From an uncultured Halieaceae bacterium (GTDB taxonomy: Bacteria > Pseudomonadota > Gammaproteobacteria > Pseudomonadales > Halieaceae), in the NCBI GenBank assembly GCA_938074045.1, contig CALJGI010000015.1, forward strand, positions 56,019 to 120,018: a stretch of DNA of 64,000 nucleotides. The letters are read 5' to 3'. This document shows positions 47,417-64,000 of this stretch, in pieces (the stretch's first letter is position 1; each line of letters opens with the position of its first letter). Under the pieces are notes generated by a model. The model made no database searches, was not told where the DNA came from, and saw nothing but the letters and a program-made list of their open reading frames with translations. The position numbers and the translations under genes are program-made.

Positions 47417-47659
47417 TTACAGCATCTCAAACTGGCAATCCATCAGAGTTACCAGATCATCAAAGTCCTGCGCTGACAGGCTCATCGCGCGACATATATT
47501 GGAGCGGTTGCTATTCATCGATCGAAGTTGGCAGAAGAGATCAAAGTTCACCTGTGCCAGTTTCAGGGGATGTATCGCCACTTGCGGTCGAATGCTTACG
47601 CCAAATTCCCTGGGGGTGTCAGGGATGGTGGTAATGGACTGTTCGGGTCGATTTTGCAT
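47417..47659 (-). CDS. Hypothetical 80-aa protein
   Basis: This is the only sizeable ORF in the 47322-47978 gap and is co-oriented with the Fe-ADH gene. I recognised no family. Confidence 0.3.
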   Translation of the reverse strand: MQNRPEQSITTIPDTPREFGVSIRPQVAIHPLKLAQVNFDLFCQLRSMNSNRSNICRAMSLSAQDFDDLVTLMDCQFEML

Positions 47660-47840
47660 AACTGACTTCCTTTTTTGATCGAGTGTGTTTCAGTTCATGT
47701 GTTGCAACATATATGCCAGCTTTTTCTGATCCCCGGTTTGGCGCACCTCAACACCAACTCAACCTGTGAAATTTGGCGTCCAAAGGGGTTACGGACGCGA
47801 TATTGATCGACTGTTTCTGCAGAACGAATGCATGGTGAAT

Positions 47841-47852
47841 TGCAAAATGCAA
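47841..47852 (+). promoter_or_regulatory. TGCAAAATGCAA motif (TGCAWWWTGCAA family), candidate regulator/enhancer site upstream of the LruC gene
   Basis: This is one of three near-identical 12-mers that I found in intergenic regions heading the accessory operons. It lies 127 nt upstream of ATG 47979. Confidence 0.35.
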
Positions 47853-47978
47853 AAAGTATCTTTTGATCTTGCAGTCAGAGTCGCGGAGGCCAGTAAAAAC
47901 GGACCGATATGTTCGGTCTGGATTGGCATGAATCTTGAAGGTATTCAGGCAAATTGATTTCGTCAAAGAAGCCTGTTT

Positions 47979-50234: not shown

Positions 50235-50264
50235 CTATTGGATCACCATCGGGAAGAAACCACA

Positions 50265-51203
50265 ATGAAACACGATTATAGACGGAACATTTACATCAGT
50301 GCTGCCTTTGCCATTGGCTTGAATACGTCGGGATGTGTATACACGTCCTTGTCGTCATCCACGCATGCTGAGCTATATCGCTGGGATGATAGCGGCTTGA
50401 CACTCGTTGCCAGTAGAAACGTTATGGAAGACCGTGAATCGAATCGATACTTCAACTTCTCAGACATCCTCATAAAAGACAAAACGCTGGAACAGCTTGG
50501 TGATGCACCTTACGTATTCAGAAGCTGTGATGTGGCTGTATGCCATGAAATAGTACTGTTCCACGACAACGTGGAGGAAGGACCGCACAATCTGCTGATC
50601 GGTGGGTTTGCAGCGTCCGGGTTGTCCACGGCAATGTACCGTGAGGTAGCTGATCTGGACCCAGCTGATGCCCGGCAGGCCCTCAATGAGTTGGCGGCAC
50701 AATTGCTTCGTGAGCCAGGACTGGATAATCACTATACAGAATTTGTGCAGCTCGACCTGAGCGCGGCGCAGGATAATGCGAAACTCAAGAGTGTTGCCTG
50801 GGAAAGTTATGCTCAGGAGGCGATAAGCTCAGGAGAGGAGATGTCGATAAATCAGATCGTACGTTCCAGTGTTACCGCTACGCGAGATCTATCAAGCGAC
50901 GCTGATTTTACGTTCTCCACAGCGCAGAACATTTTTCTGGATATCGATGTATCGGAACGCATGACAGACAATGTTCATTTATCTGTATGCGGAGACTTCC
51001 AGAAGTCAGGTATTGGTTACCTGGTGAACTATGCTGACTGTCAATTGAAAGTGATGATGTTAGATGGCAGCTACCAGGGTAGTTTACGACAATCTCAGGC
51101 AGGGGGAGAGCTCCTGATTACCCTACTGCCGGTCAGCAGCCCGGAAGATATTGAGTATTTTCTGTGGGACAGTGCGGTTGAAAATATATTTTCTGTGCGG
51201 TGA
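50265..51203 (+). CDS. Hypothetical lipoprotein
   Basis: MKHDYRRNIYISAAFAIGLNTSGC has a lipobox-like end. The gene follows the LruC gene by 30 nt. I recognised no family. Confidence 0.55.
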   Translation: MKHDYRRNIYISAAFAIGLNTSGCVYTSLSSSTHAELYRWDDSGLTLVASRNVMEDRESNRYFNFSDILIKDKTLEQLGDAPYVFRSCDVAVCHEIVLFHDNVEEGPHNLLIGGFAASGLSTAMYREVADLDPADARQALNELAAQLLREPGLDNHYTEFVQLDLSAAQDNAKLKSVAWESYAQEAISSGEEMSINQIVRSSVTATRDLSSDADFTFSTAQNIFLDIDVSERMTDNVHLSVCGDFQKSGIGYLVNYADCQLKVMMLDGSYQGSLRQSQAGGELLITLLPVSSPEDIEYFLWDSAVENIFSVR

Positions 51204-51318: not shown

Positions 51319-51978
51319 TTAGTAAGCGCCTCGCGCTGACAGCACTGCGGGCACTGTGCGGATAAGAATGAGGAGGTCGGTCAATACAGAGCGGTTGTCG
51401 ATATACTCCAGATCCAGTCGTACCTGATCAGTGAAGGGTAGCTCAGATCTTCCGGATATTTGCCAAAGGCAGGTAATCCCCGGTACAACGGCGAGGCGCT
51501 GCATCTCGTAGCTGCTGTATTCGGCAACTTCGGAAGGAATTGGTGGGCGGGGGCCAACCAGCGTCATATCACCAGAAACAACATTCCACAGTTGCGGCAG
51601 CTCGTCGACTGAAAACTTTCTGATCCATTTCCCAAGCCGGGTGATACGTGGATCCTGGCGTATCTTGAAAGTGGGGCCGTCACTGATTTCATTGCTGTCT
51701 GACAGCATGTTTTTAATTGCTTCGGCGTCTACCACCATTGACCTGAACTTCCAGCACGTGAAATGGCTGCCGTCTTTTCCTACCCTCGTCTGTCCGAAAA
51801 GGACTGGCCCTGGACTGTCTAATTTAAGCGCTGCTGCTACCAGCAGTAGGAAGGGTAGGGCTACCAGCAGAGCGATGCCTGCCACAGCTATATCTATGGC
51901 TCGCTTGATCATTTCATAGGTGGTAACAGATTGGATGTGCAGGGTTGAGTAGGCCCACAGGTTTGTTATTCGTTGCAT
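51319..51978 (-). CDS. Polyprenyl-phosphate sugar-phosphate transferase (Bac_transf family; WbaP C-terminal-domain-like priming enzyme)
   Basis: It has the motifs KRAIDIAVAGIALLV, SPGPVLFGQTRVG, FKIRQDPRITRLG, DELPQLWNV..GDMTLVGPRP. I chose ATG 51978 (GGAGA upstream) because ATG 52014 would lie upstream of the predicted sigma-54 transcription start. ATG 51912 is also possible. Confidence 0.85.
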   Translation of the reverse strand: MQRITNLWAYSTLHIQSVTTYEMIKRAIDIAVAGIALLVALPFLLLVAAALKLDSPGPVLFGQTRVGKDGSHFTCWKFRSMVVDAEAIKNMLSDSNEISDGPTFKIRQDPRITRLGKWIRKFSVDELPQLWNVVSGDMTLVGPRPPIPSEVAEYSSYEMQRLAVVPGITCLWQISGRSELPFTDQVRLDLEYIDNRSVLTDLLILIRTVPAVLSARGAY

Positions 51979-52020
51979 TGTAGAGTTCTCCAGAATGTCC
52001 TTGTTGACACTCATCTACGT

Positions 52021-52036
52021 CGCAAACCGCGTGCCA
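52021..52036 (-). promoter_or_regulatory. Sigma-54 (-24/-12) promoter candidate for the priming transferase gene
   Basis: The minus strand reads TTGGCACG-CGGT-TTGCG, a perfect TGGCACG-N4-TTGC core. The predicted +1 is near 52010. Confidence 0.65.
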
Positions 52037-52101
52037 ATCCTACAACTAATTGAAATACATGAAGAAATCTTTGTGATGCTTGAGATGGCGTGTAGATTCA
52101 C

Positions 52102-52113
52102 TGCAATTTGCAA
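52102..52113. promoter_or_regulatory. TGCAATTTGCAA motif (TGCAWWWTGCAA family; inverted repeat TGCAA-T-TTGCA) between the divergent sigma-54 promoters
   Basis: It lies 65 nt from the minus-strand -24 element and 133 nt from the plus-strand -24 element, which is enhancer-like geometry. Confidence 0.4.
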
Positions 52114-52244
52114 AGCCTTCTGCAACTCATGCTGCGCCATGCTAATAAATCCGGTCGCTACGAATTCTGCGTTGCTAGGCTCAGAACCTATAAAAACAGT
52201 AATTTTTGAGTATTTTTTACGGCTTTATTTGGCGTCAGGAAAAC

Positions 52245-52260
52245 TGGCACGAACTCTGCA
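52245..52260 (+). promoter_or_regulatory. Sigma-54 (-24/-12) promoter candidate for the DUF6492-GT4-flippase-sulfotransferase operon
   Basis: The sequence is CTGGCACG-AACT-CTGCA, with invariant GG and GC at the correct spacing and one mismatch to TTGC. The predicted +1 is near 52271, the RBS GGAGAG is at 52283-52288 and the ATG is at 52296. Confidence 0.6.
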
Positions 52261-52295
52261 TTCCCTTGTGTAGATGCCAATTGGAGAGACTAAAA

Positions 52296-53174
52296 ATGCA
52301 GCAAGAGAAGTTGACCGAGACAGATATAGCGCTGGTCACGTGTTCATACGGCCCAGATTTTAAGCGTTGCCAGCGGCTGTGCGCCAGTGTGGACCAGTAT
52401 GTACCTGCGGCGATTGAACATATTCTGGTGGTCCCAGCAGAAGATCAAAAACTATTCAGTCAATTAGGTACTGGCAATCGAGTCATTGTCAGCGTTGAAG
52501 ACACTCTTCCATGTCGCTTCTCCCGAATTCCAATGACGAGAAAGTGGTGGCTGGGACCAAACTTTTGGCCCGTTCGCGGATGGATGTTGCAACAGCTCAC
52601 CAAATTGAGCGCGGACAGGCTGACGGACCGAGAGCTCATCATGTTTGTGGATTCGGACATCGAGTTTATTCGACCGCTGCTGACAGGACTGATTGTGCAA
52701 GGGGAATTGTGCCGACTGCACCGTCATCCTGGAGAGAAAAATACTGGAGAACACCTTAGGTGGCATCACATGGCAGCAGAGGTCCTCGATCTACCTAAAC
52801 AGTACTTCGGTAGTGATTATATTGCGCCTCTGGTCACATGGCGAAGAAGCAATCTGATCAGCTTGAAAAACATTATGCAGATACGTTCACAGCTGCCATG
52901 GCATGAATTATTGCTGCGGCGATTAACTATGTCTGAGTACATTTTATATGGAGTTTATGTTGAACATGTGTTGGGCGAGGACAACAACGGCCATTTCCCG
53001 GACGATGGGACACTTTGTCATTGCTGTTGGTTTGGTGAAGACGCCAATTTGTTGAATCGTGAACAGCGCGTCAGTGATTCTTCCCTTGCGGTTCTCATTC
53101 AATCCAATATCGGCCTGTCTGTTGATCATGTCGATGCCTTGATGCAGCAAGTACGCACCCAACTGGCACGTTAG
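52296..53174 (+). CDS. DUF6492-like protein, putative GT-A-like nucleotide-sugar transferase
   Basis: It has IALVTCSYGPDF... and a DxD-like motif FVDSDIEF. It is the first gene of the plus-strand polysaccharide operon. The family call is from memory. Confidence 0.5.
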   Translation: MQQEKLTETDIALVTCSYGPDFKRCQRLCASVDQYVPAAIEHILVVPAEDQKLFSQLGTGNRVIVSVEDTLPCRFSRIPMTRKWWLGPNFWPVRGWMLQQLTKLSADRLTDRELIMFVDSDIEFIRPLLTGLIVQGELCRLHRHPGEKNTGEHLRWHHMAAEVLDLPKQYFGSDYIAPLVTWRRSNLISLKNIMQIRSQLPWHELLLRRLTMSEYILYGVYVEHVLGEDNNGHFPDDGTLCHCCWFGEDANLLNREQRVSDSSLAVLIQSNIGLSVDHVDALMQQVRTQLAR

Positions 53175-53186
53175 GAGACACCCGTG

Positions 53187-54440
53187 ATGAAGAAAATGCT
53201 GTTTCTAACATCGGAATTACCCTGGCCATTGCATAGTGGTGGTAAATTAAAGACCTTCAAGCTGCTGGAATCACTGGCATCAAAGTATGATGTAACACTC
53301 GTATGCCCTTTGAAAGGTGAAGACGAGCAATATCTCAATGAGTTTTGTCGTCTATCGCCATGCCGAATTCATCTGCATGAGCCCGTTGATCGTGCCAGAA
53401 ATGCGACTAACCTGGTAAAGAGCTATATCGCCGGTGTACCACTGAATGTACTGCGGAGTTATAGCGAGCAGTTGGCGTCGAGGACACGCAAAATAGCTGC
53501 ACACTTCGACGTGATCTTTCTCGATCACTATGAGTTGCATTACTACATACCGCAATCTCAGTTTGGGAAAGTGATTTATCACGCTCACAACACCTACCAC
53601 AAGATTTGGCAAACCTACGCGGCGACGCCAGGCAATATCTTATTTAGAGCGGCTGCATGGCTGGAGTTTAAGCGGGTTAAGACCTGCGAGAAGCGGCTGT
53701 GTAAAAAGGTAAGGTTAGTACTGGCTGCACCTGGCGATATTGAAATCCTGAGTCAGGGTTTGTCAGGCTCCGTGCCATTCCACCCGACATACCACTTGGG
53801 AAACAGCTCTCAGCTGACCATGCCAGATCTGGCGTTTGATCGATCAAAGCATAAGTTGGTCTACGTTGGTTTTCTTGGCTGGGAGCCGAATTCAGCAGGA
53901 CTGTTGTGGTTTATTGAGCGGGTTTGGCCCAGGTTGGTCAATGTGTTTCCCGAGCTTACCTTTGACATTGTAGGCAAAAACCCGGATCAGCGACTGTCTT
54001 CGGCTGTAGCCCAACACCGGGGGATTACGCTCTGTGGCTTTGTTGAAGATCTGGAAACGGTCTACCAGCAAGGGAGTGTTTCTGTTGCCCCTTTGCTGTT
54101 TGGAAGCGGCATGAAAGTTAAGGTATTAGATGCTATGTCCCGCGGATTGCCCGTGGCAACTACCTCGATCGGGGCTGAGAGCATTGCCTGTGACCATGGA
54201 GAGCATCTAATGATCGGCGATACTCCAGAGTTGATGACTGAGAACATTACTCAATTGTTGCGTGATGAAGGGCTATGGAATCGATTGCAGCTCAGTTCTC
54301 GTCAACTTATTCGCGAACACTATACCTGGGAATCCATGTTTTCCGAGATGCACAGGGTGATCGACTGTTTGGATATCTGCGTGACCGACCGCAGAAGTAG
54401 CGACGTGATGTTGCAATTGTCGCTGGTTGGAGAGCGCTAG
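53187..54440 (+). CDS. Glycosyltransferase family 4 (GT-B, Glycos_transf_1)
   Basis: The N-terminus is MKKMLFLTSELPWPLHSGGKL. The C-terminal region LVYVGFLGWEPN...SGMKVKVLDAMSRGLPVATTSIGAE carries an EX7E-like motif. Confidence 0.8.
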   Translation: MKKMLFLTSELPWPLHSGGKLKTFKLLESLASKYDVTLVCPLKGEDEQYLNEFCRLSPCRIHLHEPVDRARNATNLVKSYIAGVPLNVLRSYSEQLASRTRKIAAHFDVIFLDHYELHYYIPQSQFGKVIYHAHNTYHKIWQTYAATPGNILFRAAAWLEFKRVKTCEKRLCKKVRLVLAAPGDIEILSQGLSGSVPFHPTYHLGNSSQLTMPDLAFDRSKHKLVYVGFLGWEPNSAGLLWFIERVWPRLVNVFPELTFDIVGKNPDQRLSSAVAQHRGITLCGFVEDLETVYQQGSVSVAPLLFGSGMKVKVLDAMSRGLPVATTSIGAESIACDHGEHLMIGDTPELMTENITQLLRDEGLWNRLQLSSRQLIREHYTWESMFSEMHRVIDCLDICVTDRRSSDVMLQLSLVGER

Positions 54441-54443
54441 CAC

Positions 54444-55742
54444 ATGACGAGCCTATGCAAAATGAGTGTATTGGCTCTGAGTCGGGGCTTTGCAGTCTGC
54501 GCCCAGTTCGCCGTGCAAATTATAGTGGGTTATGTGGCGGGAGCGGCAGCCCTGGGAAGTTATCAATTGTTTACGGTGTGGTCGGCAATCCTGGGTGAGG
54601 GTATTGGCCGTGGTTTGCCAACCGGTACGATGAAAAAGGTCAGCGTGAATTTTGCAGAGGGAAAGTTATCGTCTATTTCGAATTGGATGGCATGGTCCTG
54701 TCGCGAGATAATCAGAGGTTGCGTGCCTCTCTTTTTACTATTCGTTCTGTTTTCGCTAGCGGCACGGATAGCCGGACTGCAAGTCAGTGATACTGCATTG
54801 GCATTTTGCGGTGGCGTCCTCCTTGCCGCGCCCTTGTTTGCCCTGAGTCGGGTTTATGCTGAAGCATTGAAGGCTATCGAACGACAGGTATTCGCCGTCG
54901 CAGTTGAAAACCTCATGGTCCCTGCATTCATATTGCTGCTGTGTGGTGTCTATGTAATTTTTGGATTGAGCGTCAATGAGGTGGCTCTTTTGATGGCATT
55001 TTCTGCCGCAGTTCTGTCTTCTTATTTGATAATGAGGCGAGCGCTTTTGAGATCCCTTTATGGCCTTTTGAATTCTTCTAAAGGCACAGAGTCTTGCCTG
55101 CCTCATTCTCGGGAGCTTAAGTATTTTTGGTTAATCGGATTACTCAATATTTGTTCATTGCAGATGCCTTTCCTTGTGCTTCCCTTATTCGCAGATTTGG
55201 CGGAGATAGGAGTGTTTGCTTTAGCCTTTAAGTTCATTAATGTGGTCACCACGATTCTCCTACTTTTATCGGCGGTATATAGTCCGCGCATGGCTCGCGC
55301 CGCGGCTATACACGATGTTTCCGGACTCCGCAGTCTGCTGCAGCAGACGCAGCTGATATCTGTGTGCGTATTTGTACCCTTAACCGCGTTTATCTACTTA
55401 AGCAGTGGATATATATCTGAATATCTGGGAGAAGACTTTGTAGGAGTCAAGGCTTTCTATCTTATTCTTGCCGTAGGCTATTTGTTCAATGCGGCGACCG
55501 GGTTACAAGGCGTACTGCTTAACATGGCGGGCGCTGCAAAGTTTGAAACCATTATTTCGGTTATTGTGATGGTAGTGTCTTTTTTTGCAGCGCTGGCATT
55601 CGGTCACCAGTACGGCGTAACTGGCGTTGCCATGGTATTCACCTGTGCTATTGCTTTAAAGAATATAGCGTCATATCTGGTGGCACTGTACTGGTTGAAT
55701 CACCTGGAAGTGGCCTCAAGAGATTTGGTGGTGGCTGTATGA
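54444..55742 (+). CDS. Polysaccharide flippase (Wzx-like, MOP superfamily)
   Basis: The protein is 432 aa with ~12 predicted TM segments and sits inside a glycan locus. It overlaps the sulfotransferase start by ATGA. Confidence 0.7.
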   Translation: MTSLCKMSVLALSRGFAVCAQFAVQIIVGYVAGAAALGSYQLFTVWSAILGEGIGRGLPTGTMKKVSVNFAEGKLSSISNWMAWSCREIIRGCVPLFLLFVLFSLAARIAGLQVSDTALAFCGGVLLAAPLFALSRVYAEALKAIERQVFAVAVENLMVPAFILLLCGVYVIFGLSVNEVALLMAFSAAVLSSYLIMRRALLRSLYGLLNSSKGTESCLPHSRELKYFWLIGLLNICSLQMPFLVLPLFADLAEIGVFALAFKFINVVTTILLLLSAVYSPRMARAAAIHDVSGLRSLLQQTQLISVCVFVPLTAFIYLSSGYISEYLGEDFVGVKAFYLILAVGYLFNAATGLQGVLLNMAGAAKFETIISVIVMVVSFFAALAFGHQYGVTGVAMVFTCAIALKNIASYLVALYWLNHLEVASRDLVVAV

Positions 55743-56689
55743 GAGATACGCGCAGAGAGAACGCTCTGGATTTTGTGATTGTAGGCGCACAAAAATCAGC
55801 AACAACATCTTTGTTTGAAATACTTAAAAACCACCCCCTCATCAGCTTGCCTATTGAAAAGGAAGTGCCGTTTTTTTCTGGTGATGATTTCGACCCCAGG
55901 CTGTGGCCCCGGTTTATGCAGTGTCACTTCGATGCAGCCTCACCCGGACAGATACTGGGAAAAATAAGCCCACAGTACATGTGTGACAGGCGGGTTGCAG
56001 GACGACTGGCCGGGCTGATGCCAGAAGTGCGGGTGATAGCTATATTACGAGATCCCATTGAGCGCAGCTGGTCGCATTTCCAAATGGGTAAGCGGCGGAT
56101 GACTGAGGAGAGGGATTTTTCAGGGGCGGTACGCGAGCTACTGGAGATCGATGCTCAGGAAAAAGCGGTATCACAAACGCCTCCGACCCACGCTGATGGT
56201 TATGAGTCGGAAGGCGATTTTTATCTGGCCTGGAGTGAATATGGTCGCCAGCTTACGGAGTTTTACCAGCACTTCTCCAGCGACCAGATACTGGTGCTTT
56301 TCACAGAAGACCTGAAGCGCGACCCGCAGTTGGTTATTGATCGCGTTCTGGCTTTCATAGGTCTTGCATCCGGTTACTCGCCAGCAAATCTCTCAACCAG
56401 ATCTCACCAGGGCGGGGGCGGTATGAAAATTTCTCACAACGTACGGGAGTGGTTTCGGCAGTGCCCACCCGTAGGTTGGCTGTGGTCACTGGTGCCGCCG
56501 CGTATACAGGGGAGAATCCGGTTCAAATATGAGCAATGGAACATTAGCGGGAGAGACGATCAAATGCCCCTGTGTGATGACCTGCGACAACTCCTTTATT
56601 CGCATTTTGCGAGAGACTTGAATCGCCTGAATGACTATGTCGAGTTGCTGCCGGAATGGAAATCGAGATATCGCCTGGATCTGCAGTAG
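55739..56689 (+). CDS. PAPS-dependent sulfotransferase (heparan-sulfate sulfotransferase-like, Sulfotransfer_1 type)
   Basis: It has the 5'-PSB loop FVIVGAQKSATTSL and the 3'-PB motif ILRDPIERSWSHF. Confidence 0.75.
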   Translation: MRDTRRENALDFVIVGAQKSATTSLFEILKNHPLISLPIEKEVPFFSGDDFDPRLWPRFMQCHFDAASPGQILGKISPQYMCDRRVAGRLAGLMPEVRVIAILRDPIERSWSHFQMGKRRMTEERDFSGAVRELLEIDAQEKAVSQTPPTHADGYESEGDFYLAWSEYGRQLTEFYQHFSSDQILVLFTEDLKRDPQLVIDRVLAFIGLASGYSPANLSTRSHQGGGGMKISHNVREWFRQCPPVGWLWSLVPPRIQGRIRFKYEQWNISGRDDQMPLCDDLRQLLYSHFARDLNRLNDYVELLPEWKSRYRLDLQ

Positions 56690-56695
56690 GCACGT

Positions 56696-56707
56696 TGCAT
56701 AATGCAA
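56696..56707. promoter_or_regulatory. TGCATAATGCAA motif (TGCAWWWTGCAA family; inverted repeat TTGCAT-A-ATGCAA)
   Basis: It lies in the 153-nt gap between the sulfotransferase and exporter genes, ~110 nt upstream of the sigma-54-like element at 56816. Confidence 0.4.
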
Positions 56708-56815
56708 TGCCTCCGGCGACGCCTGCTGATAAATATTCGCAGTAGAAGCTAGTGTTGCTACAGGAATAGCGGTTAAGTTACTGTTATTAAAGCATAAAAG
56801 ATGGGTTGGCCCAAT

Positions 56816-56831
56816 TGGCATTCGCCTTGCA
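56816..56831 (+). promoter_or_regulatory. Sigma-54-like -24/-12 element directly upstream of the exporter gene
   Basis: The sequence is TTGGCAT-TCGCC-TTGCA, with GG and GC at the correct spacing. The predicted +1 (~56842) abuts ATG 56843, so no leader or RBS would exist. Confidence 0.35.
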
Positions 56832-56842
56832 CTACATTGGGT

Positions 56843-59737
56843 ATGAAAACATATATTGCAATTTTCCGAGGGGTTTGTGCCGCCGCACTGGTCGTCTGGA
56901 GCGGGTCTTTGATGGCTTCTACTTATGAACCTTTTGTTGAACCTCTGGCGGCGGAACAACAGCGTCAATACCAGCAAGCAGGTGCGCGGGGTGCGGATGC
57001 TCCCCTGCAACCGCCTCAGGTTCCTCTCACGATAACGGTGCCGTCGGCCGTTGCGTCGACACTCACAGCACTTGACGACTCCGTTACTGATCGTCTGGGT
57101 GCCGTGACGGCGCTGGAGCGGCCGGTTGACCAGAAATTGGACATGCCGTTGCCGCATTTTGGGTATGACCTGTTCAATGTCGTACCGAGCACCTTTGCGC
57201 CGGTTGATAGCATACCAGTGCCGGCTGATTACAAGATCGGCCCTGGTGATACGTTGGTTATCCAACTGTTTGGAAACCGTAATGTTGAATTTACCCTGGT
57301 AGTCACCCGCGATGGTCAGATACTGATCCCTGAATACGGTCCACTGGCGGTAAGTGGGCTAACCTTTGATGAAGCTGAACGGCTGATCGTTGAGGGGTTT
57401 GAGCAGCGGGTTATTGGTGCGAAGGCGGTCGTCTCAATTGGTAAATTGCGCACCATCCAGGTAAGGGTGACTGGTGACGTAAACCAGCCCGGTATCTATA
57501 CCGTGGGCGCTCTGACCACCCTCATCGATGCCCTGATTGTGACGGGCGGAGTAAAGACGACGGGGTCCTTGCGCCGCATTCGGTTATACCGTGGTGATGT
57601 CATGGTCAGTCAGCTCGACTTATACGATCTGCTACTTCGCGGCCACACCAGGGGAGACGCCACACTTCGTCATGGCGACACCATCTTTGTGCCCGCTCTG
57701 GGCCCAGTCGCCTATGTTGCGGGTGAGGTCCAGCGACCCGCTATATACGAGCTGCTAGGCAAAGTTCAGCTGGACTCATTGATCGACATGGCCGGAGGAC
57801 TGCTGCCGGGAGCCTCCCTGACTTCATCTCATATTGAGCGAATCTCAGTTGGTGCAGGCAAGACCATCATTGATCTTGGCTCCATTGGTAAACGTTCTCT
57901 TGAAGATATTACAGTCGTCAATGGTGATCTTCTGCGGGTGCTGCCCAAGGAAGATCGACTGGATAATGTGGTTTTCCTCGAGGGACACGTGCGTCGTCCT
58001 GGTGGTTATCAGTTTCTGGAGCAGATGCGGCTCTCAGAGTTGATCTCAGGTCCAGAGGAATTGCTCCATGGCGCGGATATAGGCTTCGCCGCCATTCGGC
58101 GTGAAAACCCGACCACTCTGCGCACGGAGATAATCTATTTCAAGCCAGAAGAGTTATTTGGAAACCGTGGTGGCGCGCCAGATATTGCGCTCGTTAATCG
58201 CGATGTTGTTATGTTTTTTCGCGCCGCTGAGGCCAGAGAGAAAGTTTTGGCGGGTCTGGTCAAGGAGTTGCGTGAGCAGGCCGGTCACGGCCGACCCCCG
58301 CATACGATCGTTGTCAGTGGCTCGACCAAACATACGGGAACGTTTCCATTGCAAGCGGGAGCGCGATTGCTGGATGTAGTAGCTCTGGCTGGCGGTGTGC
58401 GTAGCGACACCGACCGTGCCTATGTTGTGGTGTCCAGCATGGACGAAGGTGATGACCAACTCTCCATGCGCGCGGTGGATCTTGAAGCGGCTACGCGATT
58501 TCCCGAGCACGATGATAACCTGCTCATTCGCCCGCGAGACAAAATCTATTTCTTTGGCGTGAACTCCGACCGGTCCGCGCTCATGGAGGACGACCTGTAT
58601 ACATTGAGGGAACAAGCAAGGTATGGCGCTGAGGTATTGACTGTGGGTGTGCTGGGTGAGGTATCTGCCCCCGGCACCTATCCTCTTGAGCCCGGCATGC
58701 GGACCAGTGATCTTGTTTGCGCAGCGGGTGGTTTGACCCGAAAGGCTGCTGGACTCAATGCCAGTCTTTCCCGTCACAGCAAGGATGGGCAAAGCCAGAA
58801 GCTGGTAGAGCATATCCAGATCGATATCGTGGCATTACTCAGCTTGTGTGAATATAGATTAGCGGTAAAACGGGGTGATGCCCTTTCGGAGGCACAGCAC
58901 CTCTACATGTCCCGGCTGGCTGAAATGGCTGACGATTATGTGCTGCAACCGATGGATCAGCTGGCGGTTAGTGTCAAGGCAAACTGGGTTGAAAAGTCGG
59001 TCGTGTATCTATCTGGTGAAGTGATTAATCCAGGTTCTTACGTTATTGATCCTGGAGAAACTCTTTGTGAAGTGCTGCAAAGAGCTGGTGGTATTACTAA
59101 TCGCGCTTATCTCCTGGGTGCTGTATTTACCCGTCAATCTGCTCTGGAAATGCAACAAAAAACCATCGAGCAGATACAGGGGCAACTGGATGAGCTAATG
59201 GTTGAGTTGTCGCTTTCTCACTCTGCACGCAACGCAGAAAAGAATGCCGAAAATGTGGGTGACAAGCGGGATTATCTGAACGTCATTAATCAGTTGGAAC
59301 GAGCCAAGCCTACTGGTCGGGTAGTGATTGATCTTGAGGAGCAATTGCGCTGTCGGCGCAAGTCGCAAATGGCGTTGCAAGACGGGGATCGACTGGAAGT
59401 CCCCATTCGACCTGACTTTGTCATGGTTTCCGGACAGGTATACGTGCCGACCAGTCAGCAGTACACGAAGGAAAGAACCGTCGCTGACTATGTAAAGCTC
59501 AGTGGGGGTCACACAGTATTGGGGCGACTTAACGACACATTTGTTATTCAGCCCAATGGTGAAGTATTGAACTATAGCGGAAGACGTCGCTCGTCCTCTA
59601 TTGCGCACAGGCATGTTATGCCCGGCGCCAGAATTTTTGTGCCGCTGAACGTGGATCGAATGAATGCCACTGAGAAGGCGCAGAGCTGGGTTAGCTCGCT
59701 GACGCAGGCAGCTTTGTTGGCGGGGTTGGTGTTGTGA
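56843..59737 (+). CDS. Very large outer-membrane polysaccharide export protein (Wza/OPX family; Poly_export domain plus about seven SLBB repeats)
   Basis: It has a signal peptide MKTYIAIFRGVCAAALVVWSGSLMA and the Poly_export motif YKIGPGDTLVIQLFGN. Iterated G-x-V-x2-PG-x-Y units are present (VTGDVNQPGIYTV, VAGEVQRPAIYEL, LEGHVRRPGGYQF, VSGSTKHTGTFPL, LGEVSAPGTYPL, LSGEVINPGSYVI, VSGQVYVPTSQQY). The C-terminus is hydrophobic (WVSSLTQAALLAGLVL). Confidence 0.8.
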   Translation: MKTYIAIFRGVCAAALVVWSGSLMASTYEPFVEPLAAEQQRQYQQAGARGADAPLQPPQVPLTITVPSAVASTLTALDDSVTDRLGAVTALERPVDQKLDMPLPHFGYDLFNVVPSTFAPVDSIPVPADYKIGPGDTLVIQLFGNRNVEFTLVVTRDGQILIPEYGPLAVSGLTFDEAERLIVEGFEQRVIGAKAVVSIGKLRTIQVRVTGDVNQPGIYTVGALTTLIDALIVTGGVKTTGSLRRIRLYRGDVMVSQLDLYDLLLRGHTRGDATLRHGDTIFVPALGPVAYVAGEVQRPAIYELLGKVQLDSLIDMAGGLLPGASLTSSHIERISVGAGKTIIDLGSIGKRSLEDITVVNGDLLRVLPKEDRLDNVVFLEGHVRRPGGYQFLEQMRLSELISGPEELLHGADIGFAAIRRENPTTLRTEIIYFKPEELFGNRGGAPDIALVNRDVVMFFRAAEAREKVLAGLVKELREQAGHGRPPHTIVVSGSTKHTGTFPLQAGARLLDVVALAGGVRSDTDRAYVVVSSMDEGDDQLSMRAVDLEAATRFPEHDDNLLIRPRDKIYFFGVNSDRSALMEDDLYTLREQARYGAEVLTVGVLGEVSAPGTYPLEPGMRTSDLVCAAGGLTRKAAGLNASLSRHSKDGQSQKLVEHIQIDIVALLSLCEYRLAVKRGDALSEAQHLYMSRLAEMADDYVLQPMDQLAVSVKANWVEKSVVYLSGEVINPGSYVIDPGETLCEVLQRAGGITNRAYLLGAVFTRQSALEMQQKTIEQIQGQLDELMVELSLSHSARNAEKNAENVGDKRDYLNVINQLERAKPTGRVVIDLEEQLRCRRKSQMALQDGDRLEVPIRPDFVMVSGQVYVPTSQQYTKERTVADYVKLSGGHTVLGRLNDTFVIQPNGEVLNYSGRRRSSSIAHRHVMPGARIFVPLNVDRMNATEKAQSWVSSLTQAALLAGLVL

Positions 59738-60678
59738 TGATCAATCACTCAGAGCACTTGGTTGCGCCTCCGACCGCTGCGTTGGAAATAGACCTGTGGC
59801 CCTATGTGGCTGCGCTGTTGGAATCCTGGCGTTTGGTATTGATGGCGGGTGTGCTCGCTGGAGCACTGGCTTATGTTGCTGGACAGATGGCGTCGCCCCT
59901 GTATGAGTCATCAGCGCGAATCAGCGTTGTGGATATCGAGGATCCGGGCGGCGTGTCACCGGATGATCGGCGGGCACCAGAAGTGCTCACCCTGGTGGAG
60001 CATGGATTCATCATGGGTACTACGCGAGATAATTATGACCAGGTGATGTTGGCCCGCTTGCGATCGCGTCAGTTTGCGCAGCTTTTTCTGGACACATTCA
60101 ATATTTATAAGCATATGTTTCCGGAGCATTGGGACAACGTGCAGGACGATTGGAAGAACGGTTTCGAACTGGACCGTGGACTCGCCTTTACAATATTCAG
60201 AGACAGTGTTCGCCTGATCGAGCATGACGAAGAGACCGACATAATCACTGTGAAAATGCAGTGGCCAGATGCGCTCCTGGCAAAAGAATGGGTGAATAAT
60301 TACATCGTTTTATTCAACGACTACATGCGAAAAAAGACTCTTGGCGACGTCGAAAAAAAGCAGAGCTTTCTGATCGAGGAATTGAAGAAGTCGGAGTTGG
60401 TAGATATTGAACGTTCGATATACCGATTGATAGAAGCACAGACTGCGATCGCCATGCTGGCGCATGCGCGCGAGGAATATGTACTGGAAGTCATAGACCC
60501 GGGTGCACTGCCCTACGCGAGCGTGAGTATGTCCCCAAGGAAAAGAGCGCTGTTGGGTTTTATGACCGGCTTGTTGCTGTCTGTTTTCTTCTTGTTTTGC
60601 AAAATCTTATTGATTCGTTTACTGGCGCGTTTTCGCCAACATCAAGAGACCTATCAGGTCGATATTTATGAGAAATGA
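59734..60678 (+). CDS. Wzz-like polysaccharide co-polymerase / chain-length determinant (no kinase domain)
   Basis: It has an N-terminal Wzz motif region with TM1 (WRLVLMAGVLAGALAYVA), a coiled-coil periplasmic region and a C-terminal TM segment (LLGFMTGLLLSVFFLF). It overlaps the exporter stop. Confidence 0.7.
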   Translation: MMINHSEHLVAPPTAALEIDLWPYVAALLESWRLVLMAGVLAGALAYVAGQMASPLYESSARISVVDIEDPGGVSPDDRRAPEVLTLVEHGFIMGTTRDNYDQVMLARLRSRQFAQLFLDTFNIYKHMFPEHWDNVQDDWKNGFELDRGLAFTIFRDSVRLIEHDEETDIITVKMQWPDALLAKEWVNNYIVLFNDYMRKKTLGDVEKKQSFLIEELKKSELVDIERSIYRLIEAQTAIAMLAHAREEYVLEVIDPGALPYASVSMSPRKRALLGFMTGLLLSVFFLFCKILLIRLLARFRQHQETYQVDIYEK

Positions 60679-62254
60679 TATGACACATGCAGCTCTTTAT
60701 GACGAACGTCAGTTTGTTAATTCGCTCGGTATTCCAGTGGATAACCTGACAATGCACGAGGCGGTGGAAGAGGTGATCAAACTCGCCAGACGTAGGGATG
60801 GCAGATCCCGCTGGGTAGCGACTCTGAATGTTGATTTTCTGACCAATTCACTGGGGTTTGGTTTTGCAAAGCCTCGGCACCCCGAACTGCTGGACGTACT
60901 CAGAAACTCGGATCTTGTGACCGCCGACGGATTTCCGATTCTGTGGCTGAGCCGGATGACGGGCCATACCCTCAAACAGCGTGTAACCGGTGCAGATCTT
61001 ATGCCAGCTATCGCAGCGCGTTCCGCTCAAGAAGGCTTGTCTTTGTATTTGTTGGGTGGAGCGCCAGGAAGCGCAGAGGACGCTGCTGCGATTTTGCAGG
61101 AGCAAAATCCCGGCCTGGCGATAGCTGGATGCGCTGCACCATACATTTCAACTTCAGGACCACAGCTGGTCAATTGGTCAGATGATGATGATGCCATAGT
61201 GGAATTGATCAACAGCTCTGGCGCCGATGTTCTCTTTATTGGATTGGGCAATCCCAAGCAGGAACTATGGTTTAGTCGCAACAGGGAACGTTTGAATGTA
61301 CCTGTATCTATGGGTGTGGGTGGCACCTTCGAGTTTATTACCGGGCGGGTAGCTCGAGCGCCCCAGTTGTTGCAACGCTGTAACCTGGAGTGGGCCTATC
61401 GAATAACGAGGGACCCCCAGCGTCTGTGGAAGCGATATGCGGTGGGTGTTGTAAAGCTGACCATACTTGCAGCGCCTCTATTGTGGCTTCGACTTATAGA
61501 TACTTATTACAACCTTGCACATCCGGTGAAAAAGGGTACTGCGGTTTGGAAAACAATCTGGTCTTCGAAAGCCAGATCGATCCAGCTGTGTCGGCTACCT
61601 GCGCAAGTCATTGATGAGCACTTGATGGACATAGTGCGACGCCAGCGTATGCCATTATGTGGAGACAGTCTTTTGTTTATAGACTTTTCGGCGGTTGATC
61701 ATGTCGACCTGGCGGCGCATCATCATTTTTTCCGCCTGGCGGCATTGGCCGGCAGTCCAGGCCGCGATGTGCAATTGTTGGGTGTTTCACCGGATTTACA
61801 GCGTCGATTAGGCGCGAGCCGGTTGATTGATCTGTTTGATTCCTCTGTTGCGGGTGATTCAATTTCCTCGTTGAGAGATCTGAATTCGGCGGATGAATCT
61901 GGTTTTGGATGCTCCAGTTATGTGCTCGAAAGCAGCGCCATCATCTTTCTCAGCGGCAAGGTTACCGGTGCAAGTCTGAACGGGATCGGATTCCAGGAGT
62001 GTTTGTTACAGAACACCAGGCAACGTACATGTGTTCTGGACATGAGGCGGGTTGATGCCGTGGATACGTCGGGGCTGGCTGAGTTGTATGCGGCTTGCGC
62101 AGCTGCAGCCGAGGAAGGCGGCGCCGTGCTAGTTAGTGGGGCTGGAGAACTCACCAGGCAGGCCATGAGAATCTGTGGCCTGGATTGGCCGGTTGAGTTC
62201 ATTGATGATCTGGAAATGTTGTCCTGGATTGTTGGCGAGGCATCTCGTGCCTGA
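60668..62254 (+). CDS. WecB/TagA/CpsF (GT26) glycosyltransferase fused to two C-terminal STAS domains
   Basis: GT26 motifs occupy aa ~20-262 (GIPVDNLTMHEAV, VATLNVDFL, ADGFPILWLSR, YLLGGAPG, GLGNPKQELW, MGVGGTFEFITGRVARAP, EWAYRITRDPQRLWKRY). STAS1 spans aa ~295-395 (LLFIDFSAVDHVDLAA...VQLLGVSPDLQRRL). STAS2 spans aa ~415-520 (CVLDMRRVDAVDTSGLAEL...VLVSGAGELTRQAMRICGL). Confidence 0.75.
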   Translation: MRNDMTHAALYDERQFVNSLGIPVDNLTMHEAVEEVIKLARRRDGRSRWVATLNVDFLTNSLGFGFAKPRHPELLDVLRNSDLVTADGFPILWLSRMTGHTLKQRVTGADLMPAIAARSAQEGLSLYLLGGAPGSAEDAAAILQEQNPGLAIAGCAAPYISTSGPQLVNWSDDDDAIVELINSSGADVLFIGLGNPKQELWFSRNRERLNVPVSMGVGGTFEFITGRVARAPQLLQRCNLEWAYRITRDPQRLWKRYAVGVVKLTILAAPLLWLRLIDTYYNLAHPVKKGTAVWKTIWSSKARSIQLCRLPAQVIDEHLMDIVRRQRMPLCGDSLLFIDFSAVDHVDLAAHHHFFRLAALAGSPGRDVQLLGVSPDLQRRLGASRLIDLFDSSVAGDSISSLRDLNSADESGFGCSSYVLESSAIIFLSGKVTGASLNGIGFQECLLQNTRQRTCVLDMRRVDAVDTSGLAELYAACAAAAEEGGAVLVSGAGELTRQAMRICGLDWPVEFIDDLEMLSWIVGEASRA

Positions 62255-63284
62255 GTCGCTTACTTATGTTGTGCTGCTCAATTACAACAACTGGCGGGAC
62301 ACGGTTGCCTGTTTAAGTTCACTTTTTCACACCTGTGCCGCGAGGATTCGCGTCGTGGTCTGTGACAACGCCTCTAGTGATGGCAGTCTGGCGCGCATTA
62401 AGCAGTGGGCGGATGGGCATTGTGACGTGGCCGACCTGGGTCACCCAAGACTAAATGCGCTGGTTCAGTCGCATGATCAGGGAATCAGGCACGTGGTTCT
62501 GAATAGTGAATTCCTGGCCACTGATAGATCCCGGCATGAAGGCGTACCATTGGTGTTGATTGATAATGGTTGCAACGGTGGTTTTGCCGCCGGATGCAAT
62601 GTGGGCATGCGCTTCGCTCTTCAGCAGCCGGACATGACCCATGTCTGGCTGCTGAACAATGACACCGTGGTGGAACCGGATTGTCTCGCAGCCATGCACC
62701 GACGTCTAGCGCGCAGTGCATCGGACGCCGTGTGTGGTTCCATGATTCATTTTTTCGATCAGCCCGAGATGATTCAGGCCGTGGGTGGAAATCGATTCAA
62801 CCGGTTCACGGGTGCTGCCGCATGCTCGGAAGGCAGGTTTTTGTCGGAGCACCAAGACATTGATATTGAGCGAATAGAGGCAGAGCTGGACTACCTAAGT
62901 GGTTGTTCAATGCTGTTGCCGCGCCGTTTTCTCGATCAGGTCGGATTGATGAGCGAGGACTATTTTCTTTATTACGAGGAAATTGACTGGTTTACCCGCG
63001 CATCCGGGGCCTATGACTGCCGCATTGCCAGAGATGCGCGCCTGTACCATCGTGAGGGTGGTTCCATTGGTTCTCCCGGGTTGGACCGGCCAACCCCTTC
63101 ACTGCTTGCGGACAAACATATTTTTCGCAGCAAGCACATTTTCATGGCACGGTACTACAAACAGCGCCTGATCTGGTGCTACCTGCATACGGCGATAGAG
63201 GGTCTGAAGCGAGTTCTGAAGGGGCAGTTCAGCAATGCCCGGACCGTATTCTCAGTCCTGTCTGAACGTGCCACCGCCGGTTAG
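62247..63284 (+). CDS. Glycosyltransferase family 2 (rhamnosyltransferase-like)
   Basis: It has YVVLLNYNNWRDT, VVCDNASSDGS, NGGFAAGCNVG and LLNNDTVVEPD motifs. I chose GTG 62247, which overlaps the upstream stop by 8 nt. Confidence 0.8.
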   Translation: MPESLTYVVLLNYNNWRDTVACLSSLFHTCAARIRVVVCDNASSDGSLARIKQWADGHCDVADLGHPRLNALVQSHDQGIRHVVLNSEFLATDRSRHEGVPLVLIDNGCNGGFAAGCNVGMRFALQQPDMTHVWLLNNDTVVEPDCLAAMHRRLARSASDAVCGSMIHFFDQPEMIQAVGGNRFNRFTGAAACSEGRFLSEHQDIDIERIEAELDYLSGCSMLLPRRFLDQVGLMSEDYFLYYEEIDWFTRASGAYDCRIARDARLYHREGGSIGSPGLDRPTPSLLADKHIFRSKHIFMARYYKQRLIWCYLHTAIEGLKRVLKGQFSNARTVFSVLSERATAG

Positions 63285-63288
63285 CTCT

Positions 63289-64000
63289 GTGAGCTTTATT
63301 GCGTCAGATGCCGGCCATGCATTACGCGCTTTGAGATTCTCGGTAAGGCTGAGCGAATGGATACCAATGGTGCTTATCTTTCTGTACGTGTTTGCAGGGT
63401 GTCAGGGTGGCAGGTACTACCTGGCAAACCGGCTACAGGAGCTGGGTATATTAAGTGCCATGCTGCTGTTATTGATCGGCGGCTGGCAGGCCATGTACCG
63501 CTTGTCTCTGAGGGAGTGGGCTGCCTGGTGTTTGAAGCCTGTAGCGCTGATGCTGGGCGTGATGGGAATTAGCTCACTGGTGTTTTACTTCAACTACTCG
63601 GGTAATCCGCTGTACAGCTTTTTCTCTGCGCGAGAGGTAATGTTACTGATGGGTGGCCCAGGTATCTATCTGCTGTATCGCAGCGACTTGCCTCTTTCAT
63701 GTATTGAAAGAGCGATATACACCGGGTTGCTGGCGCTCATGCTGAACTACCTGTTCTTCTACTACACCATGGATTTAAAGGCAGCCTTTTTCTCCAGTGA
63801 TCACACCGTGAGCAACTTGGTCACCTACGACGAGTGGCGGGGCTTCCGGCTGAAGCCGCCACTGTTTGCCGTCATGGTCGTGTTACTCAGTGCGCTCATG
63901 GCGATGCTGCAGGGCGGCAAAGGTTGGTTGAGGTGGCTGTCTGTGCTGGCTTTCAGCGCGGCCTGCTACATCTGGTCCATCGTTTTGTTTCGATCGATAT
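63289..64000 (+). CDS. Polytopic membrane protein, probable polysaccharide polymerase (Wzy/O-antigen-ligase-like); 3' end outside window
   Basis: I translated this frame by hand and it is open from 63289 to 64000 with no stop. It is absent from the ORF track because it has no stop in the window. The sequence is highly hydrophobic (VLIFLYVFAG..., LLLLIGGWQAMY..., LMLGVMGISSLVFYF...). The start is GTG 63289, TTG 63331 or ATG 63367. Confidence 0.6.
   Translation, partial: MSFIASDAGHALRALRFSVRLSEWIPMVLIFLYVFAGCQGGRYYLANRLQELGILSAMLLLLIGGWQAMYRLSLREWAAWCLKPVALMLGVMGISSLVFYFNYSGNPLYSFFSAREVMLLMGGPGIYLLYRSDLPLSCIERAIYTGLLALMLNYLFFYYTMDLKAAFFSSDHTVSNLVTYDEWRGFRLKPPLFAVMVVLLSALMAMLQGGKGWLRWLSVLAFSAACYIWSIVLFRSI

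Follow-up and report, generated by a model that had tools for sequence, protein, structure and literature searches.

Conserved sigma-54 promoters, LuxO-type enhancer boxes and a glycosyltransferase fused to tandem STAS domains at a putative sulfated-exopolysaccharide locus of Halieaceae

Gene content and conservation of the locus

The 64,000-nucleotide stretch of an uncultured Halieaceae bacterium analysed here (assembly GCA_938074045.1, contig CALJGI010000015.1, positions 56,019 to 120,018 of the forward strand; hereafter, the window) holds the larger part of a polysaccharide locus of ~21 kb, which occupies ~47.4-64.0 kb of the window and continues for at least 4.5 kb past its end. The genes suggest a Wzx/Wzy-dependent exopolysaccharide that is probably sulfated and would be controlled at two layers, by transcription from sigma-54 promoters and by STAS domains fused to a glycosyltransferase (GT). 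With every function predicted from sequence, we consider this assignment fairly likely as a whole. The assembly genes in the window are as follows.

51319-52014, minus strand: small priming phosphoglycosyl transferase of the Bac_transf family (Pfam 1e-65; TIGR03025 298 bits, above cutoff)
52296-53174, plus strand, open reading frame (ORF) listed from 52206: DUF6492 protein (Pfam 2e-18)
53184-54440, plus strand: GT4 glycosyltransferase (Glyco_trans_1_4 9e-25; best NCBIfam match TIGR03087, stp1, below cutoff)
54444-55742, plus strand: Wzx-like MOP flippase (MatE 27.3 bits, cutoff 24.9; ~12 hydrophobic segments)
55739-56689, plus strand: carbohydrate sulfotransferase of the type using 3'-phosphoadenosine 5'-phosphosulfate (PAPS) (Sulfotransfer_3, PF13469, 46.9 bits, 5e-12; Sulfotransfer_1, PF00685, 39.2 bits, 7e-10; both above cutoff)
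56843-59737, plus strand, ORF listed from 56801 (978 aa): large outer-membrane polysaccharide export (OPX) protein (Poly_export and nine SLBB-type stretches; signal-peptide start at 56843)
59734-60678, plus strand: polysaccharide co-polymerase (PCP) with two transmembrane segments (residues 32-50 and 270-300) and no kinase domain (Wzz 25.6 bits, cutoff 25.5)
60668-62254, plus strand: WecG/TagA-type GT26 glycosyltransferase with two STAS domains (Glyco_tran_WecG 1e-60, full profile)
62247-63284, plus strand, longest ORF from 62175 and called from 62247 on identical contigs: GT2 glycosyltransferase (Pfam 4e-13)
63367-64000, plus strand, cut by the window end: Wzy-like polytopic membrane protein (hydrophobic segments, position, and synteny in relatives)

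The Wzx/Wzy set is uneven in its support. The priming enzyme and the OPX protein are firm, the PCP and the flippase lie just above their Pfam cutoffs, and the polymerase is assigned by hydrophobic segments and synteny alone, with no Pfam or NCBIfam match. On contigs identical to the window, the Wzy-like gene is complete (L001, 4553-5770) and encodes 405 aa. The matches to stp1 and EpsE, both below threshold, prompted us to consider a PEP-CTERM/XrtA system; it was rejected, as all scores fell well short of the cutoffs and the locus has neither an exosortase nor a PEP-CTERM gene.

We fetched 80 loci that encode relatives of the GT26-STAS fusion (numbered with the prefix L below). About 30 of them come from Halieaceae and allied marine gammaproteobacteria, including Halioglobus, Congregibacter, NOR5-3, Litorirhabdus, Haliea and Pseudomaricurvus. 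The whole cluster is kept in these ~30 loci at ~50% protein identity, either simply rearranged or in the order Bac_transf, then, across a divergent promoter region, DUF6492, GT4, Wzx, sulfotransferase, OPX, PCP, GT26-STAS, GT2, Wzy, a bacterial enhancer-binding protein (bEBP), H-NOX and a histidine kinase. An earlier reading of the window from its letters alone (hereafter, the sequence-only reading) had proposed a Wzx/Wzy-type locus, and the Pfam and NCBIfam matches together with this synteny are in keeping with it. Every ORF that it had listed was found in place, and its assignments of Bac_transf, DUF6492, GT4, Wzx-like, sulfotransferase, OPX, PCP, GT26-STAS-STAS and GT2 proteins are backed by Pfam, NCBIfam and a structure model. 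Three elements that it had called unusual also stood: tandem STAS domains fused to a GT26 enzyme, a PAPS-type sulfotransferase, and -24/-12 matches at the heads of the transcription units. The evidence for each is given in the following sections.

In nine loci (L003, L005, L007, L009, L010, L011, L013, L022 and L025) a rearranged version was observed, in which the bEBP, H-NOX and kinase genes come immediately after GT26-STAS. Where the contig of a rearranged locus is long enough (L011, L013 and L025, and for the PCP gene also L005), a block of PCP, DUF6492, GT2 and Wzy genes lies 3' of the kinase gene. A separate sigma-54 site was found upstream of the PCP gene in L005 and L013.

The GT26-STAS-STAS fusion

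In the fusion protein, the GT26 core (residues ~20-257) is followed by a hydrophobic helix (250-284), a degenerate first STAS domain (STAS1, 294-390), a disordered linker and a second STAS domain (STAS2, 414-522). The GT26 profile PF03808 is matched in full (positions 1-168 of 168; 204.7 bits, cutoff 27.4), TIGR00696 scores 142.8 bits (cutoff 69), and the STAS profiles PF01740 and PF13466 match two stretches each. We built an AlphaFold (AF2) model from an alignment of 20 homologs (mean predicted local distance difference test, pLDDT, 77.6) and compared it with solved structures using Foldseek. The GT26 core aligned with the TagA/TarA structures 7MPK and 5WFG (E ~1e-17, target TM score 0.90-0.92, root-mean-square deviation 1.8 A), and the STAS part with SpoIIAA (1TID/1TH8), RsbV (6M36) and RsbS (6JHK), as well as with MlaB and the STAS domains of SLC26 proteins.

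The architecture is widespread. More than 500 database proteins match the fusion. Among the best 120, lengths run from ~490 to 555 aa, coverage of the query is 91% or more, and the only name given is "WecB/TagA/CpsF family glycosyltransferase". The best match among GTDB species representatives is 50% identical to the source protein, and full-length fusions with 32-41% identity also occur in Geobacteraceae, Desulfobacterales, Nitrospira, Contendobacter, Victivallales, Chlamydiales and Phycisphaerales. Many of the distant loci, those of Geobacteraceae, Desulfobacterales and Nitrospira among them, have a small Bac_transf gene directly beside the fusion and in the same orientation. This adjoining or overlapping arrangement is suggestive, as it would fit enzymes that act one after the other, at the first and second transfers to the lipid carrier.

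A phmmer search with the tandem-STAS part against 1.8 billion representatives returned 38 proteins only. The longer ones are matched at the STAS position of fusions of ~500-550 aa and the rest are short sequences; among the 38, no other fusion partner was found for the tandem STAS domains, save in one protein of 931 aa (P0123). There the match is C-terminal (residues 695-929), and the protein may carry extra N-terminal domains.

The phosphorylated residue of SpoIIAA is Ser58. In 138 aligned fusions, the STAS2 column matching this residue is occupied by serine in 124 proteins and by threonine in 8 (132/138) and is preceded by Asp or Glu. The source protein has D466-T467 at this site, and T467 caps helix 467-482 in the model. 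In six gammaproteobacterial loci (L046, L047, L049, L054, L055 and L057), a REC-SpoIIE phosphatase of the PP2C family is encoded directly 3' of the fusion. An RsbW-like HATPase_c_2 kinase gene also follows in the first five of these, and the contig of L057 ends before that position. Larger proteins that match both the phosphatase and the kinase queries are encoded near the fusion in L060, L062, L072 and L080, which are Chlamydiales, Phycisphaerales and Victivallaceae loci.

Two further architectures were noticed beside distant fusions. A protein combining NTP_transferase, hexapeptide repeats and a partial Bac_transf domain, an unusual arrangement, is encoded 3' of the GT26-STAS gene in Geobacteraceae (L038, 11539-12984) and Nitrospira (L052, 11566-13068), and a DUF4114 protein with a PEP-CTERM sorting motif lies downstream of a Chlamydiales fusion (L060, 11516-12442).

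The sulfotransferase

The sulfotransferase carries both PAPS-binding motifs, GAQKSATTSL for the 5'-phosphosulfate and RDPIERSWS for the 3'-phosphate, which align with those of the bacterial sulfotransferase 3RNL and of heparan-sulfate 3-O-sulfotransferases. The closest solved structures are 3RNL (7e-17) and then the heparan-sulfate enzymes 3-OST and NDST, which are 3-O- and N-sulfotransferases. The gene is syntenic in all related loci that cover its position, and the exopolysaccharide is predicted to be probably sulfated.

Sigma-54 promoters and LuxO-type enhancer boxes

We scanned the window for the sigma-54 pattern TGGCAC-N5-TTGC, allowing one mismatch. The 12 matches, against 7.3 expected, are not significant alone. 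Three of them stand at operon heads in the correct orientation.

52022-52036, minus strand: -24/-12 element TGGCACGCGGTTTGC, a perfect match, at the head of the Bac_transf gene; kept in 22/25 relatives
52245-52259, plus strand: -24/-12 element TGGCACGAACTCTGC, at the head of the DUF6492/GT4 operon; kept in 17/23 relatives
56816-56830, plus strand: -24/-12 element TGGCATTCGCCTTGC, at the head of the OPX gene; kept in 28/28 relatives

By chance, a site would be expected at each of these heads in ~2.7% of loci. Binomial tails overstate the significance since the loci are related, and we hold the conclusion to be safe. At ~50% protein identity the intergenic DNA should be randomised, yet the positions of the elements are kept, which argues that they are genuine. 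Judged by this record, the sigma-54 elements are real and phylogenetically conserved, and the promoters predicted from them are well supported. A scan with the sigma-70 consensus gave no promoter-like match in the intergenic regions at the operon heads. The promoter positions also correct three start codons, to ATG 51978, ATG 52296 and ATG 56843. The first is the probable start of the Bac_transf gene, because the sigma-54 element leaves an upstream start no room, and the second is the probable start of the DUF6492 gene, as judged by promoter position and translation.

The candidate enhancer is the motif TTGCA-N3-TGCAA, which equals the published upstream activating sequence of LuxO, TTGCAWWWTGCAA (PMC10162802). 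With one mismatch allowed, three copies occur in the window, against 0.53 expected, and all of them are at the locus.

47840-47852: LuxO-type box TTGCAAAATGCAA, perfect, at the upstream end of the locus
52101-52113: LuxO-type box CTGCAATTTGCAA, one mismatch from TTGCAWWWTGCAA, between the two divergent sigma-54 promoters, with equivalents in relatives
56695-56707: LuxO-type box TTGCATAATGCAA, perfect, its first base 121 bp upstream of that of the OPX promoter element

A fourth box, again perfect, lies on the identical contig ~165 bp upstream of the bEBP gene. In the relatives, a box was found 40-220 bp upstream of 62 of the 137 sigma-54-like sites (3.6% expected), and the distances peak sharply at 80-120 bp. 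The OPX promoter there has one to three boxes ~90-150 bp upstream of its element, and boxes are often paired, ~23 bp apart, upstream of the same promoters. The TTGCA-N3-TGCAA boxes are putative activator enhancers, placed at enhancer distance. The enhancer of the SypG type, TTCTCANNNTGMDWN, is not enriched at the locus and is absent from the enhancer positions.

A LuxO-like activator, H-NOX and hybrid kinase past the window end

The sequence-only reading had seen no bEBP, partner-switching kinase or phosphatase, or BY-kinase in the window, which holds according to Pfam analysis of the window ORFs and, for the kinase and phosphatase, four phmmer queries. The locus as a whole is not devoid of an activator, since one is encoded directly downstream, within the conserved cluster, together with an H-NOX protein and a hybrid kinase. 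The evidence comes from two contigs, L001 and L083, which are identical to the window where they overlap it and run ~4.5 kb past position 64000. They encode, in order, the Wzy-like protein, the bEBP, the H-NOX protein and a soluble hybrid histidine kinase. An extension of this kind had been suggested in search of a bEBP, an RsbW-like kinase and a PP2C phosphatase; the first was found ~760 bp past the window end, and neither of the other two in the ~4.5 kb.

The bEBP (L001, 5944-7365; 473 aa) has the domains Response_reg, Sigma54_activat and HTH_8, that is, a REC-AAA+-HTH arrangement, with the GAFTGA motif present. Its best match among solved structures is LuxO (5EP0, 4e-131) and its best NCBIfam match, over the full length, is NF041946 (LuxO_transreg_Vib). 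By sequence it is a relative of LuxO within the LuxO/SypG family and not LuxO itself. The H-NOX protein (182 aa; PF07700, 148.5 bits) is nearest to Nostoc Alr2278 (1e-38) and to the beta1 subunit of soluble guanylate cyclase (sGC; 4e-25), and the Shewanella type is distant (1e-10). These similarities place it in the Nostoc/sGC type. Both the proximal histidine and the haem-propionate motif YxSxR are conserved (HYSSSR, compared with HYQSTR in Alr2278). The hybrid kinase is cytoplasmic, with the order HNOBA-HisKA-HATPase_c-REC, to which full-length relatives add Hpt. All Halieaceae-type loci with enough sequence on that side have this cassette of bEBP, H-NOX and kinase 3' of the cluster.

An AsmA-family protein is encoded 3' of the hybrid kinase in the two relatives checked (L014, 18034-19896; L012, 18877-20718); it may bear on outer-membrane export or be unrelated.

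Predicted pathway, its control and alternative explanations

From the enzyme families, the following pathway can be proposed. The small Bac_transf enzyme would prime undecaprenyl phosphate, and the GT26 enzyme would put on the second sugar, which is the committed step. GT4, GT2 and perhaps the DUF6492 protein would finish the repeat unit, which the sulfotransferase would O-sulfate from PAPS. The unit would then be flipped by Wzx, polymerised by the Wzy-like protein and exported via the PCP and the large OPX protein.

At the transcription layer, three or four units would be expressed from sigma-54 promoters, each 80-120 bp downstream of a TTGCA-N3-TGCAA box. A gas ligand, here taken to be nitric oxide (NO), would bind H-NOX and alter the activity of the kinase, and a His-Asp-His-Asp phosphoryl transfer would yield the phosphorylated activator, which would promote the sigma-54 open complex. 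If the sign is as in HqsK, HahK and HnoK, NO would turn the kinase, and hence the polysaccharide, off. At the enzyme layer, the two C-terminal STAS domains would gate the GT26 activity through the phosphorylation state of STAS2 (T467). By analogy with Ser74 of All4160 and Ser56 of SypA, a serine kinase and phosphatase pair encoded elsewhere in the genome would operate this switch; for the source organism, such post-translational control through STAS is inferred. The broadest reading, which we offer tentatively, is that the GT26-STAS-STAS fusions with their flanking REC-PP2C and RsbW-like pairs form a widespread, undescribed class, whose phospho-switch, of the partner-switching type, would bear directly on the committed glycosyltransferase of a pathway for lipid-linked polysaccharide. 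In Halieaceae-type marine bacteria this switch would lie beneath a self-contained circuit running from NO through H-NOX, the HNOBA kinase and the LuxO-type activator to sigma-54, and the exopolysaccharide driven by this circuit would truly be sulfated.

Several points weigh against this reading. At the enzyme layer, phmmer with the L047 and L049 proteins detected neither an RsbW-like kinase nor a PP2C phosphatase in the window, in the ~4.5 kb after it or in the ~30 loci (21 kb) of the Halieaceae type, and Pfam showed none in the window; the searches in the window and these loci gave receiver-domain cross-hits only. Six of the 138 fusions have neither Ser nor Thr in the STAS2 phospho-site column, the STAS2 motif is E/D-S/T-S-A/G and not the canonical DSSG, and STAS1 of the Halieaceae type has His345 in place of the phospho-site serine. 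As regards the predicted sulfation of the polymer, no genes for PAPS synthesis occur in the 64-kb window. At the transcription layer, the bEBP scores 621.7 bits with NF041946, below the cutoff of 800; only 12 nt separate the OPX element from the ATG in the source genome, compared with 45-60 nt in relatives, which would imply a nearly leaderless mRNA or a weaker promoter; and NO as the ligand of H-NOX and the inhibitory sign are both assumptions. Finally, the related loci share ancestry and are not statistically independent.

The strongest alternative concerns the enzyme layer. The transcription circuit would be as described, and the STAS pair would be a constitutive docking or ligand-binding module, with no phospho-switch in the Halieaceae lineage. 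Comparable to MlaB on MlaF or to the STAS domains of SLC26, it would anchor GT26 to either the priming enzyme or the machinery of export; alternatively, its ligand would be a nucleotide or a lipid. We regard this as possible without being probable. The missing kinase and phosphatase genes, the degenerate STAS1 and the non-canonical E-S-S-A motif of STAS2 in this lineage speak for it, as does the return of MlaB and SLC26 STAS domains by Foldseek. A plain docking role is harder to reconcile with a phospho-site column that is Ser or Thr in 132 of 138 fusions, and with distant fusions whose STAS1 has the canonical DSSGLG and whose genes adjoin those of REC-PP2C and RsbW-like proteins. Moreover, All4160 is phospho-regulated by a kinase and a phosphatase that were studied as separate loci (PMC13555669).

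It is also conceivable, though unlikely, that the sulfotransferase acts on another target, such as a lipid-linked lipopolysaccharide intermediate, a glycolipid or a small molecule, and that the exopolysaccharide is unsulfated. The known non-cyanobacterial sulfotransferases of bacteria modify Nod factors and mycobacterial glycolipids (PMC8205485), and the polymer here is known from genes alone. Against this stand the position of the gene, which lies between wzx and the OPX gene and in one sigma-54 operon with GT4 and the flippase in all covering relatives, and the fact that, after 3RNL, the closest solved relatives of the enzyme are carbohydrate sulfotransferases.

Much less probable is that the regulator cassette is a general LuxO-like signalling module with its main targets elsewhere, for instance small RNAs, and that its adjacency to the cluster is incidental or secondary. 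LuxO of Vibrionaceae does work via the qrr genes (PMC10162802), and the activator gene here itself has a box upstream. However, all three boxes of the window are at this locus and at the right distance from sigma-54 elements, box and promoter pairs are conserved at the heads of the polysaccharide operons of relatives, and the cassette remains attached to the cluster even where loci are rearranged. Nor did a search of the whole window against Rfam at the gathering threshold reveal any RNA family, so that there is no Qrr-like small RNA behind the sigma-54 sites. That this is an ordinary capsule or O-antigen cluster with -24/-12 matches and palindromes arising by chance is barely credible, for although the sigma-54 pattern is unenriched in the window taken alone, the element positions are conserved over ~30 loci at ~50% protein identity and paired with enhancer boxes, and a sigma-54 activator is encoded within the cluster.

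Comparison with known systems

Each component of the proposed phospho-switch and gas-responsive circuit has a precedent, in syp with HnoX/HahK, in All4160 and XssP, and in the HfiA-HfsJ pair. The sequence-only reading had likened the locus to the syp locus of Vibrio fischeri. This comparison is apt for regulation, given the activator of the LuxO/SypG family and an H-NOX and kinase pair resembling HnoX/HahK; taken as a whole, the locus is distinct from syp. LuxO and SypG share ~48% identity (PMC10162802), and NO enters syp control via HnoX and the hybrid kinase HahK (PMC12369376). Like syp, the locus is probably of the Wzx/Wzy type and has several predicted sigma-54 promoters, each with a putative upstream enhancer, a large OPX protein, a kinase-less PCP, a Bac_transf priming enzyme and a STAS element for presumed control after transcription. 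Unlike in syp, where SypA is a free protein, STAS occurs here solely in tandem fusion to GT26, and no gene for a SypE-like protein (RsbW-REC-PP2C) is present in the Halieaceae locus. The enhancer is of the LuxO type and not TTCTCANNNTGMDWN. The locus itself contains the genes for the H-NOX protein (Nostoc/sGC type) and for a soluble HNOBA kinase, which in relatives has an Hpt domain of its own, as well as those for a sulfotransferase and a DUF6492 protein. Its gene content plainly differs from that of syp, and the gene order appears to differ too.

The closest parallels to the fusion are cyanobacterial. All4160, which acts in formation of the Hep layer in Anabaena, is inactivated when an RsbW-type kinase phosphorylates its STAS serine and reactivated by the REC-SpoIIE phosphatase HenR, as reported in 2026; its STAS-Bac_transf architecture was described as rare outside cyanobacteria (PMC13555669). 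The xss cluster for synechan, the sulfated exopolysaccharide of Synechocystis, contains sulfotransferases (PMC8205485), and its XssP has the same architecture as All4160. In both proteins, as predicted here, STAS is covalently joined to an early transferase of a Wzx/Wzy pathway acting at the level of the lipid carrier, and REC-SpoIIE and RsbW-like genes resembling those of the All4160 system flank GT26-STAS fusions in lineages other than Halieaceae. In contrast to All4160 and XssP, where STAS is on the priming phosphoglycosyl transferase, here it is C-terminal, in tandem and on the second-step GT26 enzyme. The fusions occur in heterotrophic Proteobacteria and in further phyla outside cyanobacteria, and sigma-54 with a LuxO-type activator takes the place of XssS/R/Q. 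The sequence-only reading had called the locus an undescribed variant. In so far as a STAS domain fused to a sugar transferase is already known from All4160 and XssP, this went too far; the GT26 version was not found in the searchable literature, where our search returned no paper linking STAS with GT26, WecG or TagA.

In the NO branch of Vibrio quorum sensing, H-NOX controls the hybrid kinase HqsK, from which phosphoryl groups pass to LuxO via LuxU (PMC3759921, PMC6759604, PMC10162802). The Halieaceae cassette shares with this branch an H-NOX protein, a hybrid kinase and a LuxO-type sigma-54 activator with the box TTGCAWWWTGCAA. It differs in the H-NOX subtype, in having Hpt fused to the kinase (in relatives), so that a separate LuxU is unneeded, and in its apparent targets, which are polysaccharide operons and not qrr small RNAs, with no Qrr detected in the window. 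In the searchable literature, we found no paper linking Halieaceae with H-NOX or with this locus.

Among GT26 enzymes, TagA catalyses the first committed step (PMC8784642), and HfsJ, a known regulatory control point, is inhibited by HfiA in Caulobacter (PMC3900383). Like TagA/TarA, WecG and HfsJ, the fusion has a full-profile catalytic domain (TM score ~0.9 of the model on TagA/TarA), and its hydrophobic helix after the core resembles the membrane-association region of TagA. Unlike the known GT26 enzymes, it has STAS domains attached; no such GT26 enzyme was found in the searchable literature.

Should the phospho-switch reading be true, the All4160 paradigm would extend over Proteobacteria, Nitrospirota, Chlamydiota and the PVC phyla, and a glycosyltransferase would be the long-sought kind of target for STAS proteins of the SypA type. 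The mechanism of SypA was reported as unknown (PMC4517449), and the fusion, read as a Rosetta stone, hints that STAS proteins that stand free in polysaccharide loci, such as SypA, may act on a glycosyltransferase. The proposed wiring from a haem gas sensor directly through a LuxO-type sigma-54 activator to a polysaccharide locus, with no cyclic di-GMP enzymes or small RNAs between, is testable. The literature also states that other bacterial exopolysaccharide clusters had yielded no sulfotransferase genes (PMC8205485). At the genomic level, the locus and its relatives are counter-examples to both statements of lineage restriction (PMC13555669, PMC8205485). If the reading holds, they would also provide a genetically defined pathway for sulfated exopolysaccharide outside cyanobacteria, in an abundant coastal clade, and a sulfated polymer would bear on the origin of the sulfated, degradation-resistant polysaccharide in marine organic matter. 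The OM60/NOR5 clade (Halieaceae), to which some of the hosts belong, is abundant in coastal seawater, and several hosts have been cultured; cultured relatives include Congregibacter variabilis IMCC43200, C. brevis IMCC45268, Litorirhabdus singularis IMCC14734 and Pseudomaricurvus alkylphenolicus KCTC 32386.

The upstream part of the locus and other genes of the window

The sequence-only reading had placed the start of the locus at 51.3 kb. The cluster probably starts near 47.4 kb instead: the stretch upstream of 51.3 kb includes a small ORF and the gene for a secreted LruC-domain protein, together with a LuxO box and a sigma-54 element. Besides the box at 47840, the features of this part are as follows.

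47417-47659, minus strand: small ORF of 80 aa with a good Shine-Dalgarno sequence and a sigma-54 element 45 nt upstream of its start; no Pfam match
47704-47718, minus strand: sigma-54 -24/-12 element TGGCATATATGTTGC, facing the 80-aa ORF
47924-47938, plus strand: weak, tentative sigma-54-like element TGGCATGAATCTTGA with GA for GC at -12, 84 bp downstream of the 47840 box and 40 nt before ATG 47979
47979-50234, plus strand: secreted DUF6923/GEVED/DUF4842 (LruC-domain) protein (Pfam; TIGR04456; signal peptide)
50238-51203, plus strand: ORF matching no family, with an N-terminus like that of a lipoprotein; its sole relative is a weak partial match in L033, and its membership in the locus is uncertain

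In L007 and L022, homologs of the 80-aa ORF are preceded by perfect sigma-54 sites, and more homologs occur in L005, L010 and L063; by this context it is a probable member of the regulon. DUF4842 homologs adjoin the cluster in L032 (1-675) and L033 (11-517), and another is encoded in a separate operon of L005 (16516-20206) with a sigma-54 site and a LuxO box. The LruC-domain protein is a probable co-regulated matrix or surface protein. The L005 operon also holds a CarboxypepD_reg-like protein, a small protein and an Acyl_transf_3 acyltransferase, and may supply matrix proteins and O-acylation of the polymer.

Elsewhere in the window, a GAF-GGDEF diguanylate cyclase is encoded at 2508-3530, ~45 kb upstream of the locus and with no evident tie to it. 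Three ORFs, at 27391-29535 (plus strand), 29604-30449 (minus strand) and 31927-33249 (minus strand), encode proteins of 714, 281 and 440 aa with no Pfam match at E <= 1e-5, and adjoin a gene for a wax-ester synthase of the WS/DGAT type at 33677-35263.

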